Positions 1 through 7,047 of a stretch of 7,047 bases of DNA are shown piece after piece. The stretch lies in NCBI RefSeq assembly GCF_053078305.1, contig NZ_CP166877.1. One strand, given 5' to 3'. Positions within the stretch are counted from its first letter, which is position 1. Every line of letters begins with the position of its first letter. Source of the stretch: a plasmid. Made by a program: the position numbers and the translations under genes. The notes under the pieces are model-generated. The model did no database searches. It saw only the letters and a program-made list of their open reading frames with translations, and was not told the origin of the DNA.

Positions 1-1599
1 ATGATAGTTAAGTTTCATGCCAGGGGAAAAGGCGGTGGCAGTGGTCCGGTTGATTACCTGCTGGGCCGGGAGCGTAACCGGGAAGGGGCGAGAGTTCTGC
101 GGGGTGCTCCCGAAGAGGTGCGGGAACTCATCGATGCCACGCCGTTTGCGAAAAAATACACCTCGGGGGTTCTGTCTTTTGCAGAGCAGACCCTGCCACC
201 GGGAGAGCGTGAAAGGGTGATGGAGAGCTTTGAGCGGGTACTGATGCCCGGTCTTGAAAAAAATCAGTACAGCATCCTGTGGGTGGAGCACCAGGACAAG
301 GGGCGTCTTGAGCTGAATTTTGTCATCCCGAATATGGAGCTGGCGAGCGGAAAACGGCTCCAGCCCTATTACGACCGGGCGGACCGTCCGCGAATCAATG
401 CCTGGCAGACACTGGTGAATCACCATTACGGGCTGCACGACCCGAACGCACCGGAGAACAGGCGGACACTTGTCACCCCGAATAATCTGCCGAAAGCGAA
501 ACAGGAGGCCGCAGAAGCGATTACGAGGGGACTGGAGGCTCTTTACCATGCCGGAGCGCTAAAAACGCGTCAGGATGTCACTGAGGCGCTTACAGCGGCA
601 GGTTTTGAGGTGGTGAGGACAACCAGGAGCAGTATCAGTATCGCCGACCCGGAGGGCGGGCGTAATCTCAGGCTGAAAGGGGCGCTGTATGAGCAATCTT
701 TTACAAATGGGGACAGACTTCGAGAAGAAACTGAAAGAGCGTGCCGTCTCTACAGAGAACATGCTGAACAGCGAGTTCAGGAAGCTCGAAGCGTCTGTAG
801 ACAGGGAACTGAACTTAAACGGGCAGAAAATCAGAGACGCTATCAGCGCACACACAGCAGCGGTGAAAGAACAACTGGAGACGCTGAACAGTGCCGTGAA
901 CGCGCAGTTCAGCGCCACAGAGAACGAACTGGCCCGGCGGCAGGAAGAGCTGCTCTGGAAGCTGATCAAAGGGCGGATACTGTACCCGTCGCTGACGGCG
1001 CTTTGCGTCACGGGCGGGATTTTTCTGGCGTCATGGGGGCTGATTCAGTGGCAGGAAAGCCGTATTGCGGCGAACATCCTGGCTATCAGGGACCAGGAAG
1101 AGACGCTGGCGAAACTCCGGGAAAAAACATGGGGTGTGACGTATCACGAGGGCAGGAACGGGAAATTTCTGGTGCTGCCGTCCGGGGTGAAGGGGGAAAA
1201 CAACTGGACGGTGGAGAAGAAGAACGCAGTAAGACTGGTCAGGGAGTAAGTGAGTATGACAGAGCTGGAAATGCACTTACTGAACGCCTTAGAGCAATTG
1301 CAGCAGGACTATACGCAGCGGCTGAAAGACTGGGAGAGCGCCTTCACGGATTTGCAGCATATGTTCGAGCTGACACGACAGGAGAACGGGCAACTGAGGG
1401 AACAGTGCGACGACTTGAGTCAGCAGGTGCAGAGATTAGCCGGGCAGGTGGACCGCTTGAGTCGGTTATTTATCACGAACAGCAGATAAGGGATGAACAG
1501 GAAAGGCAGGCACGCCTGGAACGGGAGCGTGCGCGGTCCTGGCATGAAGAGCAGGAACGGGAAGTACGGGTATGGCGTGGCCCGTCAATGGGGATGTGA
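1..1599 (+). CDS. mbeA: Mobilization relaxase MbeA (MobA-like, HEN-type relaxase of ColE1-family plasmids)
   Basis: 532-aa ORF starting at base 1. The N-terminus MIVKFHARGKGGGSGPVDYLLGRE matches the ColE1 MbeA N-terminus as I recall it, including the catalytic Tyr in VDYLLG. A His/Glu/Asn motif (WVEHQDKGRLELNFV) fits the HEN relaxase signature. The C-terminal third is low-complexity Arg/Glu-rich and hosts the nested mbeB/mbeD frames. Confidence 0.9.
   Translation: MIVKFHARGKGGGSGPVDYLLGRERNREGARVLRGAPEEVRELIDATPFAKKYTSGVLSFAEQTLPPGERERVMESFERVLMPGLEKNQYSILWVEHQDKGRLELNFVIPNMELASGKRLQPYYDRADRPRINAWQTLVNHHYGLHDPNAPENRRTLVTPNNLPKAKQEAAEAITRGLEALYHAGALKTRQDVTEALTAAGFEVVRTTRSSISIADPEGGRNLRLKGALYEQSFTNGDRLREETERACRLYREHAEQRVQEARSVCRQGTELKRAENQRRYQRTHSSGERTTGDAEQCRERAVQRHRERTGPAAGRAALEADQRADTVPVADGALRHGRDFSGVMGADSVAGKPYCGEHPGYQGPGRDAGETPGKNMGCDVSRGQEREISGAAVRGEGGKQLDGGEEERSKTGQGVSEYDRAGNALTERLRAIAAGLYAAAERLGERLHGFAAYVRADTTGERATEGTVRRLESAGAEISRAGGPLESVIYHEQQIRDEQERQARLERERARSWHEEQEREVRVWRGPSMGM
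689..1249 (+). CDS. mbeB: Mobilization protein MbeB, nested inside mbeA in the +2 frame
   Basis: 186-aa ORF wholly inside mbeA in another frame, which is the classic ColE1 mob arrangement. ATG start is preceded by AAGGGG about 8 nt upstream. The product has a hydrophobic segment (LTALCVTGGIFLASWGLI) consistent with a membrane-associated accessory protein. Confidence 0.75.
   Translation: MSNLLQMGTDFEKKLKERAVSTENMLNSEFRKLEASVDRELNLNGQKIRDAISAHTAAVKEQLETLNSAVNAQFSATENELARRQEELLWKLIKGRILYPSLTALCVTGGIFLASWGLIQWQESRIAANILAIRDQEETLAKLREKTWGVTYHEGRNGKFLVLPSGVKGENNWTVEKKNAVRLVRE
1256..1489 (+). CDS. mbeD: Mobilization protein MbeD (reported entry-exclusion role in ColE1), nested in the mbeA 3' region
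   Basis: Same +2 frame as mbeB, directly after the mbeB stop (TAA 1247-1249). The ORF track starts it at GTG 1250, but ATG 1256 has the better Shine-Dalgarno spacing (GGGAG 1242-1246, 9-nt spacer), so the start is placed at 1256 (alternative 1250). Product is a 77-79 aa coiled-coil-like protein (MTELEMHLLNALEQLQQDYTQRL...). Confidence 0.7.
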   Translation: MTELEMHLLNALEQLQQDYTQRLKDWESAFTDLQHMFELTRQENGQLREQCDDLSQQVQRLAGQVDRLSRLFITNSR

Positions 1600-1759
1600 C
1601 GGTGAGTTGTTCCGGGAGGTTGCCAGATGGTACCGGAACGCGTTAAAAACGCATCCGGGCGCGATTCTGGCGTGTCGTTTTTGTTGCTGTGTTTTGCCTC
1701 TTTGCCAGATCGCGCTCATTCCTCAGCCTCATCCCGCGATGTCTGCGTATGTCATCAAC

Positions 1760-1939
1760 TGAAAAGATGGAAAAAAAACAGTGTCATGAGGTTTACGCAG
1801 GCAAAACCAGCGTTATTCACATGGCTGAATAGCTATGCATACGGTTAAAATTTATCAGGTGCGATCGCGGCAGCTTTTCGGGTGGTTTGTTGCCATTTTT
1901 ACCTGTCTGCTGCCGTGATCGCGATGAACGCGTTTCAGC
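1760..1939 (+). promoter_or_regulatory. cer accessory sequences (PepA/ArgR-binding region), with a candidate ARG box near 1825-1841
   Basis: Lies immediately upstream of the XerC-side of the cer core, as in ColE1 cer. TGAATAGCTATGCAT at about 1826-1840 resembles the ARG-box consensus (TGAAT-4-ATTCA) and sits about 115 bp upstream of the crossover region. Extent of the accessory region is approximate. Confidence 0.5.
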
Positions 1940-1969
1940 GGTGCGTACAATTAAGGGATTATGGTAAAT
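1940..1969 (+). other. cer-type XerC/XerD recombination core (multimer resolution site)
   Basis: GGTGCGTACAA-TTAAGGGA-TTATGGTAAAT at 1940-1969 matches the ColE1 cer core as I remember it: 11-bp XerC arm, 8-bp central region, 11-bp XerD arm. Confidence 0.85.
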
Positions 1970-1972
1970 CCC

Positions 1973-2395
1973 TTACTGTCTGCCCTCGTATCCATCGAGA
2001 TAAACCGCAGAAATGGTGTCTGCCATTAGTTTCATTTTTTTCGGCGAAGGCATATCGCTGTTTGTGTATTTTCTGCCAGCAAAGGTTGTTGTGCTCCGGA
2101 GTGAGTGAAAAAATTTTTCTGAGTGGAATTCTTTTACACGTTGCTGTGCCGTTTCTGCTGATACTCCGGCTGCTTTGTCTTTCACCCCCATATCCCGGAA
2201 CTGCTGAAAGAACGGGAGCATCATACGTATGGTGTCTGCTTTCTGGGTGTAGAAGTTAGGATCAAATCCATCATCTGAAGCATAAACATAATGCCGGGTA
2301 TGTCGTTCCAGGCTGGTCTTTGGTGTGCATCCTGTAAGAGCTATTGTTGCTGTTATCAGAGGTATCAGAAGCAGCCTGGCAGCGGCAGATCTCAT
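1973..2395 (-). CDS. Putative outer-membrane lipoprotein of unknown function (possibly the Exc1-like ORF of ColE1-type plasmids)
   Basis: ORF 1973..2401 (-). The N-terminus has a signal peptide and lipobox (LLLIPLITATIALTG-C). Residue +2 after the Cys is Thr, not Asp, suggesting outer-membrane sorting. Start is placed at the second ATG (2395) because AAGGAG lies 6 nt upstream of it; the first ATG at 2401 abuts the SD. No catalytic motif recognised. Confidence 0.6.
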   Translation of the reverse strand: MRSAAARLLLIPLITATIALTGCTPKTSLERHTRHYVYASDDGFDPNFYTQKADTIRMMLPFFQQFRDMGVKDKAAGVSAETAQQRVKEFHSEKFFHSLRSTTTFAGRKYTNSDMPSPKKMKLMADTISAVYLDGYEGRQ

Positions 2396-2516
2396 AAACA
2401 TCTCCTTGCGTTTTTAATCTTGATACTCAGGGAGTTATATCTCCGAAGAGTATCTCTTATCATACGTCGGTTTACTCCCAATGTGATTTTATGGTCAATG
2501 AGTCAGGAATAATCCC

Positions 2517-2795
2517 GTGAAAAAATGTGTGCCAGTCCTGCTTTTTAGTGTTCTTTCTGCTTCGGTTGCCAGTCATGCGGACAGCAATGTTTTTCAACAA
2601 AAGGCCGAGAAGACAAAAAACGGCATTGTTGCGGATGTTAATGCCAGACAGAAAATGTTCAGTAACAGACTGAAGATACAACTTCAGATCGATGAGTTGA
2701 GAGCAGAGCTGGCTGGCACCAGAGATGCCCAAAAAAGAGAGGATTTGCGTAAAAAACTGGAGTCTCTGGAGCGGCAAAAGAAATCCTTACGCTGA
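2517..2795 (+). CDS. Small exported coiled-coil protein (Sec signal peptide), function unknown
   Basis: 92-aa ORF with GTG start at 2517 and AGGA 8 nt upstream. N-terminus MKKCVPVLLFSVLSASVASHA|DS is a typical signal peptide with an A-x-A-like cleavage site. The mature ~71-aa part is highly charged and heptad-like (LKIQLQIDELRAELAGTRDAQKREDLRKKLESLERQKK). The antisense ORF 2472..2777 looks non-protein-like, which favours this strand. Confidence 0.5.
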   Translation: MKKCVPVLLFSVLSASVASHADSNVFQQKAEKTKNGIVADVNARQKMFSNRLKIQLQIDELRAELAGTRDAQKREDLRKKLESLERQKKSLR

Positions 2796-3104
2796 TGGGG
2801 GCGTATTTTCCCCGGTTTCTTCCATAACCTTTTTACCGTTCAGATATTTACGGGCGAGGCGAATGCGTCTTGCCTGGTATACCGCTGAGTAAGCCTGGGT
2901 GGGATTCACACCATTACTGATTTCACTGACCACATGACGCTGATCAGCCAGTGTCAGCGTGTAAACCTGTTTCTGGATGAGGTCACGGGCTTTGTCATAC
3001 TCATATCCGGCAGCAACAAGGGTGTCGAGAAGTCGTTTGTCTGTTTTGTTCAGTTTATGGCGGGGTGATTTGCTCACATCGTTCTCCGTTTTTTCATGAT
3101 CCAA
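2787..3104 (-). CDS. Small basic protein, possibly DNA-binding (HTH-like), function unknown
   Basis: ORF-track ORF of 105 aa that begins at a TTG (RC of 3102-3104). A more plausible start is the in-frame GTG at 3077 (codon 10), with GGAG 6 nt upstream, giving a 96-aa product. The sequence is Lys/Arg-rich with a helix-turn-helix-like stretch (VVSEISNGVNPTQAYSAVYQARRIRLARKYL). Its 3' end overlaps the convergent 92-aa gene by 9 nt. Confidence 0.45.
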   Translation of the reverse strand: MDHEKTENDVSKSPRHKLNKTDKRLLDTLVAAGYEYDKARDLIQKQVYTLTLADQRHVVSEISNGVNPTQAYSAVYQARRIRLARKYLNGKKVMEETGENTPPSA

Positions 3105-3209
3105 CAGTTTTATATCTCATCCTGATTTGCTCCGGTGTTCTGTTTCGACGTTCTCAATGCCTGCCTCCCCATAGTGTGATCCTTATTGCAAAAATGAAAA
3201 TCCATGCTC

Positions 3210-3238
3210 TTGACACGGACAATGCTGAGTAGTAGGTT
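3210..3238 (+). promoter_or_regulatory. Colicin operon sigma70 promoter (-35 TTGACA 3210-3215; putative -10 TAGGTT 3233-3238)
   Basis: Consensus -35 TTGACA, a 17-bp spacer and an imperfect -10, immediately upstream of the tandem LexA boxes and about 80 bp upstream of the colicin ATG. This is the usual colicin promoter architecture. Confidence 0.7.
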
Positions 3239-3242
3239 TTCA

Positions 3243-3273
3243 CTGTACATAAAACCAGTGGTTATATGTACAG
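3243..3273 (+). promoter_or_regulatory. Tandem LexA (SOS) operators overlapping by 1 bp
   Basis: CTGTACATAAAACCAG (3243-3258) and GTGGTTATATGTACAG (3258-3273), each close to CTGT-N8-ACAG. The double overlapping SOS box is the hallmark of colicin promoters, and the arrangement is near-identical to the colicin E1 operator as I recall it. Confidence 0.85.
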
Positions 3274-3317
3274 TATGCTGTTTTTAATTTATTGTTTTAA
3301 TTATCAAAGAGGAATTT

Positions 3318-4964
3318 ATGGCTAAAGAACTAAGTGGATATGGCCCAACTGCTGGTGAGTCTATGGGGGGAACAGGGGCGAATCTGAATCAGCAAGGTGG
3401 AAATAATAATAGTAATAGTGGGGTTCACTGGGGTGGTGGCTCTGGGCATGGTAATAATGGTGGTCAGGGAAATTCAAATTCATCTGGTTCTACATCAACT
3501 GTGATGAAAACCGGTGAGTCATATCTGACTCCGTGGGGTGATGTTGTCATTAATAATGATGGCCTTCCGGTGATGAATGGTATTGTTATGACAGAAGAGA
3601 ATTCAACTCTGGTTGATAATCCATTTGGAGGGGTCTCCAGAGTTCTTAATTCTTTAATTAGTGATATGCCATCACTTTTTGCAGAAAGCTCAGGAAATAA
3701 CAACAATAACACTGCTTCAGTTAATACTGCACCAACGAATGCTCAGGTCAGTGATATGGATAAGAGTTCGAAGGTGGTGGGTAATGTAATTAATGAAAAA
3801 CAAAAGCAGAAGAATAAAATTGCTACACAGATTAGTGAAAAACAGAAGAAAATAGAGGAGATGAAAAAAGTATTCAAGCATCATTCTTATCATGGTATCA
3901 CTGATCTTGAGAGGGATGTTGATGAGTTGCAAAAAAAATCAAATCAGCTTGATGCAGATATTAGCAAACTTAATTCTTATAAAAATACATTGCAAAGTAA
4001 AATTGGTGATGTGAATAAACAGAAGGAAGCTGAAGAAAAGGCTCGTGAAAATGCAGAGGTCGCTGAACATGAAACTCTTAATGAAGAGAAACAGGCGGTG
4101 GTGGAAGCAGAGAAGCGTTTAGATGAGGCGAAAGCTGAACTGGCGAAGGCTGAAAGTGATGTACAGAGTAAGCAAGCTACTGTTTCCAGAGTTGCAGGAG
4201 AGCTTGAAAACGCTCAGAAGAGTGTTGACGTGAAGGTCACCGGATTTCCGGGATGGCGTGACGTTCAGAAAAAACTACAGCGTCAGCTTGAAGCTAAGCA
4301 GGCTGAGTACTCCGCAGTTGAAAATGAACTTAAGAATGCTGTTAGTTTCAGGGATGGCAAGGCTGCTGAGGTAAAAGAGGCAGAGCAGAAATTAAAAGAA
4401 GCTCAGGATGCTCTTGAAAAGAGCCAGATAAAAGATGCTGTTGATACTATGGTTGGGTTTTATCAATATATAACCGAACAATATGGAGAAAAATACGCAA
4501 AAATTGCTCAGGATTTAGCGGAAAAGTCTAAAGGAAAGAAAATTCAAGGTGTTGATGAAGCTCTGGCAGCATTTGAAAAGTATAAAAATGTACTGGATAA
4601 GAAATTCAGTAAAGTTGATCGGGATGCTATTTTTAATGCGTTAGAGTCTGTTACTTATGATGAGTGGGCAAAGCATCTAGAAAAGATCTCTAAGGCTCTT
4701 AAGGTTACCGGATATTTGTCTTTCGGGAATGATGTATGGGATGGTACCCGGAAGGGATTAGAAACAGGAGACTGGAGGCCTTTATTTGTCACTCTGGAGA
4801 AGAGTGCGGTAGATTTCGGAGTGGCAAAAATTGTGGCATTAATGTTCAGTTTTATTGCTGGTGCTCCTCTTGGTTTCTGGGGGATTGCTATTATCACTGG
4901 TATTGTTTCTTCTTACATAGGGGATGATGAGCTGAACAAACTTAATGAGTTGTTAGGGATTTAA
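3318..4964 (+). CDS. cka: Pore-forming colicin of the E1/K/5/10 family; length and organisation best fit colicin K
   Basis: 548-aa ORF with AAGAGG SD 5 nt upstream. It has the three expected parts: a Gly/Asn/Ser-rich low-complexity N-terminal translocation domain, a long Lys/Glu-rich coiled-coil central region, and a C-terminal channel domain closely resembling the colicin E1 pore domain as I recall it ([59 protein letters not shown], then the hydrophobic hairpin [33 protein letters not shown]). Colicin K is 548 aa; the specific K assignment is from memory. Confidence 0.92.
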
Positions 4965-5251
4965 TATCTCTTTAGAGTGTAATATATGAAACTTGGCAAT
5001 CCTACTGGGATTGCCATTGCCAGGTAAAGTAAATAAAAAAGGTTGTATGAGTACCAAGGCTCTTTTTTTATGTTTGTCGTCTTTTGTATAAAAGAAAATA
5101 TCGTTAGTTTTGAATATGGGTATAGTAATACATGTATTGATGCAAAAAATATAAAAGCTAGAGATATATCATTGTTATAGTTAAGTGTTAAATATAATAA
5201 CCATGGCAGAAGTGATTCAGGTAAATTATGTAGGTAGTATTTTAGATACAT
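4961..5251 (-). CDS. cki: Colicin immunity protein (pore-former type, integral membrane)
   Basis: 96-aa ORF convergent with the colicin gene. It is very hydrophobic and AT-rich with about three predicted transmembrane segments ([12 protein letters not shown]..., [16 protein letters not shown]..., [23 protein letters not shown]). Position and opposite orientation between colicin and lysis genes are typical of pore-forming colicin immunity genes. Its stop overlaps the colicin stop in TTAA (4961-4964). Confidence 0.85.
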
Positions 5252-5275
5252 AATTTTTTCTTTTGTTGGAGGTGT

Positions 5276-5407
5276 ATGAAAATAGTGCTTTTTCTAATTA
5301 CAATATTATCCTTGTCAGGATGTCAAGCAAACTATATTCGTGATGTACAAGGAGGAACCGTTGCGCCATCTTCGTCTTCTGAACTGACGGGGATCGCGGT
5401 TCAGTAG
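5276..5407 (+). CDS. ckl: Colicin lysis (release) lipoprotein
   Basis: Not in the ORF track because it is short. Manual translation gives [43 protein letters not shown] (43 aa): signal peptide, lipobox LSG-C, and the conserved mature motif [11 protein letters not shown] typical of colicin lysis proteins. GGAGG lies just upstream. Confidence 0.85.
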
Positions 5408-5415
5408 AAAAGATC

Positions 5416-5441
5416 AAAGGATCTCTTGAGATCCTTTTTTT
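5416..5441 (+). terminator. Rho-independent terminator-like hairpin plus T-run at the end of the colicin operon
   Basis: AAAGGATCTC-TT-GAGATCCTTT inverted repeat followed by TTTTTTT, 9 nt after the lysis gene stop. The same motif occurs at the equivalent place in pMB1/pBR322. It overlaps the RNAII promoter -35. Confidence 0.5.
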
Positions 5442-5454
5442 CTGCGCGTAATCT
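5426..5454 (+). promoter_or_regulatory. RNAII (replication primer) promoter: -35 TTGAGA (5426-5431), -10 TAATCT (5449-5454)
   Basis: Matches the ColE1/pMB1 RNAII promoter context (TTGAGATCCTTTTTTTCTGCGCGTAATCTGCTGC), with a 17-bp spacer. Confidence 0.7.
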
Positions 5455-5467
5455 GCTGCCTGTAAAC

Positions 5468-5573
5468 GAAAAAACCCGCCTTGTGGCGGGTTCTTCCGTC
5501 CGATCAGAAGTCTTCGACCTCTTCTAATCGGCGGTGGTAACTGGCTATCGCAGAGCACAGGTACCTAAATTGT
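5468..5573 (-). ncRNA. RNAI antisense copy-number control RNA
   Basis: The reverse complement reads ACAAUUUAGGUACCUGUGCUCUGCGAUAGCCAGUUACC..CCGAUUAGAAGAGGUCGAAGACUUCUGAUCGG..AACCCGCCACAAGGCGGGUUUUUU. This gives three stem-loops and a terminal hairpin plus U-run, homologous in layout to pMB1 RNAI but with different stem and loop sequences. Confidence 0.8.
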
Positions 5574-5579
5574 CCTTCT

Positions 5580-5609
5580 AGTGTAGTCAAAATCAGACTG
5601 ATACTTCAA
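5580..5609 (-). promoter_or_regulatory. RNAI promoter (minus strand: -35 TTGAAG = RC of 5604-5609; -10 TACACT = RC of 5580-5585)
   Basis: Conserved with the pMB1 RNAI promoter (TTGAAG ... CTACACTAGAAGGACA) and correctly spaced from the inferred RNAI 5' end at about 5573. Confidence 0.65.
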
Positions 5610-6039
5610 GAACTCTGTTACCAACTTATAAATCTCGCTCTGCTAACCCGGTTACCAATGGCTGCTGCCAGTGGCGTTAAGTCGTGTCTTTTCCGGGTTG
5701 GACCCAAGAGAACAGTTACCGGAGAAGGCGCAGCAGTCGGGCTGAACGGGGGGTTCCTGCATACAGCCCGGCCCGGAGCGAACTGCCTAAGTCGCCCCGA
5801 GATACCAGAAGACGTGAGCTATGAGAAAGCGCCACGTGTCCCGCAAGGGAGAAAGGCGGAAAAGGTATCCGGTAATCGATATGGCGGGAACGTGGGGGCG
5901 CAGGAGGGAGCGATTCACCGGAAACGGTGATGATCTTTAAGCCACGTCGGGTTTCGCCACCGCTGGCGGATTTCATGGTTGAGCCGTAAGGCTCCCACAG
6001 ATGCACCGAAAAAGTGTCTGTTTTGTGAAGTCCGTCAGG

Positions 6040-6100
6040 GGGGCGGAGCCTATGGAAAAAGCGCCTCCGGCGCGGCCTTTTCCGGGGTTTTTGTTTTTTG
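6040..6100 (+). other. oriV: RNAII/DNA transition region of the ColE1-type origin
   Basis: GGGGGGCGGAGCCTATGGAAAAAGCGCC...GGCCTTTTCCGG is homologous to the pMB1 region containing the RNase H processing and DNA-synthesis start site. The exact switch point is not determinable from sequence alone. Confidence 0.5.
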
Positions 6101-6249
6101 CGCACATGTTCTTTCCCGGGTTATCCCCGGATTCTGTGGATAACGGGGTCACCGCCTTTGAGAAAGGAGAGTCCGCTCGCCGCAGCCGAACGACCGAGCG
6201 CAGCGAGTCAGTGAGCGAGGAAGCGGAAGAGCACCGGAAGCGGCATTTT

Positions 6250-6420
6250 CTCCTTACGCATCTGTGCGGCATTTCACACCCGACATGGCGCATTTTTCAT
6301 ACTATCTACACTGATGCCACATGATTAAGCCAGTATACACTCCGCTATCGCTACGTGACTGGGTCATGGCTGCGCCCCGACACCCGCTAAAACCCGCTGA
6401 CGCGCCCTGACGGGCTTGTC
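6250..6420 (-). other. oriT / bom region with a conserved ColE1-type nick site (minus strand CTGG|CTTA; nick between 6330 and 6329)
   Basis: TAAGCCAGTATACACTCCGCTATCGCTACGTGACTGGGTCATGGCTGCGCCCCGACACCCGC...GACGGGCTTGTCTGCTCCCGGCATCCG is near-identical to the pBR322 bom segment as recalled. The nick position is placed by homology to the ColE1 nic site as I remember it. Confidence 0.6.
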
Positions 6421-6475
6421 TGCTCCCGGCATCCGGTCACAGGCAAGCTGTGACCGTCTCCGGGAGCTGCATGTG

Positions 6476-6667
6476 TCAGAGGTTTTCACCGTCATCCCCG
6501 AAGCGTGCGAGGCAGCTGCGGTAAAGCTCGTCGGCGTGGTCGTGAAGCGCTTCGCAGATGTCAGCCTGGTCGTCGGCGTCCAGTTCATTCAGTTTTTCCA
6601 GCAGGGTCAGCGTCTGGCTTCTGATGAAGCGGGCCATGTTAAGGGCGGTTTTTTCCTGTTTAGTCAC
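6476..6667 (-). CDS. rop: Rop/Rom (RNA one modulator; RNAI-RNAII kissing-complex stabiliser)
   Basis: 63 codons ending ...TKQEKTALNMARFIRSQTLTLLEKLNELDADDQADICEALHDHADELYRSCLARFGDDGENL, near-identical to ColE1/pBR322 Rop. The start appears to be GTG (RC of 6665-6667) at the position of the ATG in pBR322. The ORF-track entry 6476..6907 is an artefactual N-terminal extension. Confidence 0.9.
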   Translation of the reverse strand: MTKQEKTALNMARFIRSQTLTLLEKLNELDADDQADICEALHDHADELYRSCLARFGDDGENL

Positions 6668-6710
6668 AGTTCTGTTTCTCCATGTGTGGGGAGTCTGTCG
6701 GAGGTTTTTA

Positions 6711-7047
6711 ATGATACCGGTGAAACGCGAAAGAATGCTCACGATACGGGTCACGGATGAGGAACATGCGCGGCTGCTGGCACGTTGTGAGGGAAAACAA
6801 CTTGCGTCATGGATGCGTAAGGTCTGCCTGGGGGCACCGCCATCGAAAACGTCAGGCCTTCCGACACTGGCACCGCCGCTGTTGCGCCAGTTCGCTTCGG
6901 TCGGCAATAACCTGAATCAGATAGCCCGGAAGATAAACAGCGGACAGTGGTCGGGGCATGACCGGGTTCATGTGGTGGCTGCACTGATGGCCATCGGGCG
7001 TGAACTGAGTGAGCTGAGGGATGAGGTCCGTAAACAGGGAGAACGGG
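6711..7047 (+). CDS. mbeC: Mobilization protein MbeC (oriT-binding accessory protein), 3'-truncated by the window end
   Basis: Manual translation from ATG 6711 (GGAGG 6700-6704, 6-nt spacer) gives MIPVKRERMLTIRVTDEEHARLLARCEGKQLASWMRKVCLGAPPSKTSGLPTLAPPLLRQFASVGNNLNQIARKINSGQWSGHDRVHVVAALMAIGRELSELRDEVRKQGER... with no stop before the window end. It resembles ColE1 MbeC as recalled (..LAPPLLRQ...GNNLNQ.ARK.NSGQW...). An alternative start is ATG 6735 (MLTIRV...). Confidence 0.8.
   Translation, partial: MIPVKRERMLTIRVTDEEHARLLARCEGKQLASWMRKVCLGAPPSKTSGLPTLAPPLLRQFASVGNNLNQIARKINSGQWSGHDRVHVVAALMAIGRELSELRDEVRKQGER

Follow-up and report, generated by a model that had tools for sequence, protein, structure and literature searches.

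A 7,047-bp sequence that ends inside mbeC is very probably an entire circular ColE1-family colicin K plasmid

A stretch of plasmid DNA of 7,047 nucleotides (the window, by which the whole stretch analysed is meant) begins on the first base of the mobilization gene mbeA and runs out within mbeC, which raises the question of whether part of the plasmid is missing or whether a complete circle was opened inside a gene. The original prediction was of an almost complete circular plasmid of roughly 7.1 kb, opened at the start of mbeA, with some tens of bases absent between position 7047 and position 1. Its placement of the two ends was borne out. Bases 1-3 are the ATG of a 532-codon mbeA open reading frame extending over 1-1599, the product of which scores 714 bits against the NCBIfam model NF047848 'plasmid mobilization relaxase MbeA' (cut-off 500), and the frame that opens at ATG 6711 meets no stop through 7047, leaving mbeC with 112 codons and one base. 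The features at the two ends are as follows.

1..1599, + strand: mbeA, HEN-type relaxase of 532 aa (NCBIfam NF047848 relax_MbeA_E1)
6711..7047, + strand: mbeC, MobC-family ribbon-helix-helix relaxosome accessory protein, codons 1-112 and the first base of codon 113
1..11, + strand: end of mbeC on the closed circle, also the first 11 nt of mbeA, with the overlap ATGATAGTTAA
7037..7041, + strand: Shine-Dalgarno-like GGGAG, 6 nt before the mbeA ATG, read directly from the sequence and of presumed function

When position 7047 is joined straight to position 1, translation across the junction completes MbeC as ...KQGERDDS*, with base 7047 and bases 1-11 reading GAT GAT AGT TAA (D, D, S and stop) and the TAA at 9-11; no base has to be added and none removed to restore the split gene. 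The sequence across the junction, if closed as proposed, would be ...GAACGGGATGATAGTTAAG, in which the window's terminal ...GAACGGG is followed immediately by ATGATAGTTAAG, and mbeC and mbeA overlap by 11 nt as they do in ColE1. The mbeC stop thus runs into the mbeA ATG. It had also been claimed that ColE1 mbeC ends just overlapping the start of mbeA, and this holds: in NC_001371.1 mbeA starts with its ATG at 2180, and the stop of mbeC occupies 2188-2190, within GGGATGATAGTTAA. This overlap, at ColE1 positions 2180-2190, is the mbeC/mbeA overlap of the window, and the junction sequence GGGATGATAGTTAA is identical in both. The joined MbeC aligns with ColE1 MbeC from end to end over 115/115 aa, at 77% identity and with no gaps, and both proteins finish in RDDS. 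The gene sits directly upstream of mbeA and overlaps its start, as is expected of a ColE1 MOB-HEN plasmid. The truncation of mbeC apparent at 7047 is therefore attributable to the opening point only.

Completed MbeC scores above cut-off against two Pfam models, MobC PF05713 (46.7 bits, cut-off 23.2) and NikA-like PF21983 (39.3 bits, cut-off 27), in agreement with the prediction that the window ends inside mbeC; NCBIfam models gave no match to MbeC, and Pfam was used in their place. In the part of PMC4175270 that cites Varsaki et al. 2009, MbeC is described as a ribbon-helix-helix nicking-accessory protein of the ColE1 relaxosome. A GGAGG at 6700-6704 precedes ATG 6711 with a 6-nt spacer, and an alternative in-frame ATG at 6735, which is the RefSeq start in relatives, would give a protein of 107 aa. 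A scan of 6400-7047 for promoter and terminator consensus sequences returned nothing, and the mbeC promoter was not located there.

An artificial junction query, composed of the last 600 and the first 600 bases of the window (1,200 nt), was searched against plasmid records. It was recovered as a single ungapped match of 1,200 bases in all 40 of the 40 plasmid records listed; the best match reached at least 99% in 100 records, and at least 80% of the query was covered in 967. The 7,047-bp window contains no N, and its ends share no direct repeat of at least 8 nt; with no terminal redundancy, the record is already trimmed to a single unit.

Both in PLSDB and among the RefSeq E. coli complete genomes, the window has its nearest relative in pFHI_NMBU_10_02 (NZ_CP046541.1), a 7,047-bp circle from E. 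coli FHI_NMBU_10, isolated from human faeces in Norway. It was opened elsewhere; rotated by 5,552 bases, it aligns with the window along its whole length at 99.3% identity, with 49 substitutions and 0 indels, and has the same gene order and length. The join of 7047 to 1 corresponds to its internal positions 5552/5553, a region in which RefSeq places MobC at 5240..5563 and the mbeA start at 5553. The rare colicin K/immunity variant of the window is found in it as well, with 100% identity over 4600-5260, and the two plasmids share their variant of the ColRNAI replicon. At the 49 differing sites the base of canonical pColK is found in the window at 22, in NZ_CP046541.1 at 24 and in neither at 3, and the differences have the appearance of a natural patchwork.

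Of the 49 substitutions, ten fall within a run of 37 bases (6283-6319) that adjoins the nic sequence on the - strand (6326-6338). The best full-length PLSDB match to window positions 6150-6480 reaches only 95.8%. Recombination may have produced the cluster, or this short stretch may be hypervariable. The exact window sequence was not found among the PLSDB and RefSeq E. coli complete genome records searched, nor was an exact copy of a window-specific 46-nt string (6280-6325) found in the genome_contigs and metagenome_contigs collections. For exactly this variant, circularity is accordingly deduced from comparison with its relatives.

Taken together, the closure of mbeC, the collinear relative of equal length and the uninterrupted join in many plasmids indicate that the plasmid is exactly 7,047 bp. 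The window very probably constitutes an entire circular ColE1-family colicin K plasmid (ColRNAI replicon, MOB-HEN), opened at the first base of mbeA. The earlier description of a small circular ColE1-family plasmid opened at this point stands, whereas its 'almost complete' becomes complete and its 'roughly 7.1 kb' becomes 7,047 bp exactly.

If some tens of bases had been lost between the two ends, as originally proposed, this would account for an mbeC that has no stop inside the window and, read linearly, looks truncated. However, bases 1-11 supply the missing end of the gene, and the direct join already yields both the stop and the overlap known from ColE1. Any insertion at the junction would contradict everything that supports the join, namely the closure of mbeC, the overlap conserved with ColE1 and the full-length alignment to its MbeC, the equality in length to NZ_CP046541.1, which shows no indel, and the agreement with the many plasmids that carry the same junction ungapped. 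A gap of this kind was rejected on these grounds and has next to no probability. Nor was any support found for chromosomal or otherwise unrelated DNA between mbeC and mbeA.

It is also conceivable, though very unlikely, that the window is one unit of a tandem multimer, part of a cointegrate formed with a second small plasmid, or a copy integrated into a larger molecule, and that no free 7,047-bp monomer exists. Records of 13.8, 18.0, 20.4 and 23.4 kb hold two to three head-to-tail pColK units, or pColK together with DNA of another Col plasmid, and in E. coli genomes 110 of the 3,440 matching places are on chromosomes, where they are probably partial matches. Multi-unit records of small plasmids are, however, a familiar artefact of long-read assembly. 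The window comprises exactly one unit; its two ends fit together to the exact base, and no foreign DNA flanks them. It carries a cer site, by which multimers are resolved, and its relatives were mostly deposited as monomer circles of 6,987-7,047 bp. A multimeric or cointegrate origin would leave the conclusion drawn here at the level of sequence unchanged, which is that the window very probably holds the whole plasmid.

A complete plasmid of this type is expected to carry a defined set of modules, and all of them are present in the window, each exactly once. The prediction that replication, copy control, dimer resolution, mobilization and colicin functions would all be found was confirmed by the presence of RNAI, Rom, cer, nic, mbeCABD and the colicin, immunity and lysis genes. 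The mobilization region contains, in addition to mbeA and mbeC, the following features.

689..1249, + strand: mbeB, nested in another frame of mbeA (Pfam MbeB_N, 84.3 bits)
1250..1489, + strand: mbeD, mobilization/exclusion, nested in mbeA (NCBIfam plas_excl_MbeD, 123 bits; Pfam MbeD_MobD, 122 bits)
6326..6338, - strand: predicted oriT nic site, GTATACTGG/CTTA, an exact match to GTATACTGGCTTA (0 expected by chance)

MbeA shares 59% identity with ColE1 MbeA over its full length and possesses Y19, H97, E104 and N106, the positions of the HEN signature, to which a catalytic role was reportedly assigned by Varsaki and colleagues in 2003. An MbeB family protein is annotated in relatives at the same place as mbeB of the window, and the RefSeq start of mbeD is 1256. 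In this lineage the RefSeq annotation reduces mbeA to a pseudogene of 318 nt, described as 'partial in the middle of a contig; missing C-terminus'. Despite this call the gene is open over 532 codons in both the window and NZ_CP046541.1, and the call is probably an annotation artefact tied to the variable C-terminus and to the nesting of mbeB and mbeD.

In ColE1, an MbeC dimer binds oriT and aids the HEN relaxase MbeA in nicking the transferred strand. The ColE1 nic sequence is said to be CTGG/CTTA, also on the word of Varsaki and colleagues from 2003, and the segment at 6326-6338 (- strand) matches a nic sequence of oriT, where nicking itself is predicted. The accessory protein MbeC and the relaxase MbeA of the window would act together at this site. 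The two genes form one operon, and translation of mbeA is probably coupled to that of mbeC by way of their 11-nt overlap and of the GGGAG, since this probable ribosome-binding site of mbeA (7037-7041) sits within the 3' end of mbeC. Linearisation at base 1 places this GGGAG and the mbeA ATG at opposite ends of the record.

Replication, copy control, multimer resolution and entry exclusion are represented by the following features, together with two reading frames between exc2 and the colicin gene.

5466..5572, - strand: RNAI, antisense copy-number regulator (Rfam RF00106, 53.4 bits, gathering score 47)
6476..6667, - strand: rom/rop, stabiliser of the RNAI-RNAII kissing complex (Pfam Rop, 125.2 bits)
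1940..1969, + strand: cer-type XerC/XerD core site for multimer resolution, with the core GGTGCGTACAA-TTAAGGGA-TTATGGTAAAT
1973..2401, - strand: exc2, entry-exclusion lipoprotein (NCBIfam entry_exc2_fam, 179.5 bits)
2517-2795, + strand: conserved open reading frame, hypothetical protein in relatives
2787-3104, - strand: conserved open reading frame, hypothetical protein in relatives

RNAI and Rom block formation of the RNAII primer and in this way determine the copy number, and the position of RNAI marks the 5' end of RNAII on the + strand of the window. In replicons of the ColE1 type the transition from RNAII to DNA (the RNase H origin) lies ~550 nt downstream of the RNAII start. MOB-suite assigns NZ_CP046541.1, 99.3% identical to the window, to ColRNAI_rep_cluster_1857, and it is by way of this typing of the relative that a transition point is implied in the window. 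The two frames between exc2 and the colicin gene are annotated in relatives as WP_000710675.1 and WP_032330705.1, in both cases as hypothetical only, and the product of the frame at 2517-2795 (+) gave no match to Pfam or NCBIfam.

XerCD acts at cer to resolve multimers. The core in the window is an exact match to GGTGCGTACAA-N8-TTATGGTAAAT, which we take to be the ColE1 cer consensus, and no match was obtained in 200 shuffles. Four window-specific substitutions (1908, 1911, 1924 and 1932) cluster at 1908-1932, just upstream of the core, in the presumed cer accessory region; at each of these sites both NZ_CP046541.1 and canonical pColK have the other base.

The colicin region consists of three genes.

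3318..4964, + strand: pore-forming colicin of colicin K type, 548 aa (Pfam Colicin, 110.9 bits; ColA_N, 64.2 bits)
4961..5251, - strand: Cki-family immunity protein, 96 aa (Pfam CKI, 161.9 bits)
5276..5407, + strand: colicin release (lysis) lipoprotein (Pfam Lysis_col, 82.7 bits)

With 95% identity to Cka over 548 aa, the colicin is what is expected of the cka gene of pColK. Residues 1-445 differ from Cka by two substitutions only (262 and 268), with the remaining differences located after residue 445, and over its last 148 aa the protein shares 91% identity with colicin 10. The canonical cki immunity gene of pColK was not found; the protein encoded in its place is closer to Cti, the immunity protein of colicin 10 (80% identity), than to Cki (69%). 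At a DNA identity of at least 98%, window positions 4600-5260 were matched only by NZ_CP046541.1 and CP056942.1 among 72,556 PLSDB plasmids. As judged from these comparisons, the colicin is a rare mosaic, in which colicin K is combined with a colicin-10-like, immunity-determining C-terminal segment and immunity gene.

Canonical pColK monomers are 6,987-6,995 bp long, and pColK-K235 (NC_006881.1, 8,318 bp) is canonical pColK with an IS2 insertion. The backbone and gene order are common to canonical pColK and the window, which are nearly identical at 1-4600 and 6400-7047, and canonical pColK possesses the same mbeC/mbeA overlap, and the opening point of some of its records is that of the window. 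In total length, however, the window exceeds it by 59 bp, and relative to the canonical 6,988-bp pColK two segments have been exchanged in both the window and NZ_CP046541.1. One comprises the 3' end of cka and the immunity gene, where identity falls to 63-89% per 100 nt, and the other is 5400-6300, the RNAI/RNAII/ori region, which shows 54-89% identity per 100 nt with gaps and looks like a replicon swap. The layout of ColE1 (NC_001371.1, 6,646 bp) is the same as that of the window, with rom on the - strand, mbeC, mbeA with nested mbeB and mbeD, exc2, and colicin, immunity and lysis genes, and the cer core and nic sequences of ColE1 match the window exactly. ColE1 differs in that it encodes colicin E1 rather than K and possesses exc1, which has no annotated counterpart in the window.

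Other circular pColK-type records have been opened at or near the same position. NZ_JBUBIB010000003.1 starts on the same base, with ATGATAGTTAAG, and its RefSeq MobC is annotated across the origin at 13524..11; NZ_CP018987.1 starts 2 nt upstream of base 1 of the window, and its RefSeq MobC likewise crosses the origin, at 6684..13. The most likely origin of the start on the mbeA ATG is a rotation during assembly, in which circular contigs are turned so as to begin with a gene. NZ_CP082064.1 (17,997 bp), NZ_JBUBIB010000003.1 (13,836 bp) and other 'complete' records are built of pColK units repeated head to tail two or three times; in some, small deletions or frameshifts occur between units, and these records may represent real multimers or long-read assembly artefacts.

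The plasmid type, the gene order and the mbeC/mbeA overlap are already known as textbook features of ColE1 and pColK. Closure of the circle brings no new biology and is a matter of how the sequence is represented. The plasmid is of a known type, and an equal-length plasmid of 99.3% identity has already been deposited. The sequence is best handled as a closed replicon of 7,047 bp, and mbeC must be annotated across the origin, as the gene otherwise looks truncated and the ribosome-binding site of mbeA is split from its start codon. The exchange of the replicon at 5400-6300 may alter incompatibility with canonical pColK. More tentatively, the union of the receptor-binding and translocation parts of colicin K with a C-terminus and immunity gene of a colicin-10-like lineage could confer a distinct immunity specificity within the K/5/10 group, a possibility to which we give less than even weight; if it is true, the mosaic colicin would kill cells protected by colicin K immunity and perhaps also those protected against colicin 10.
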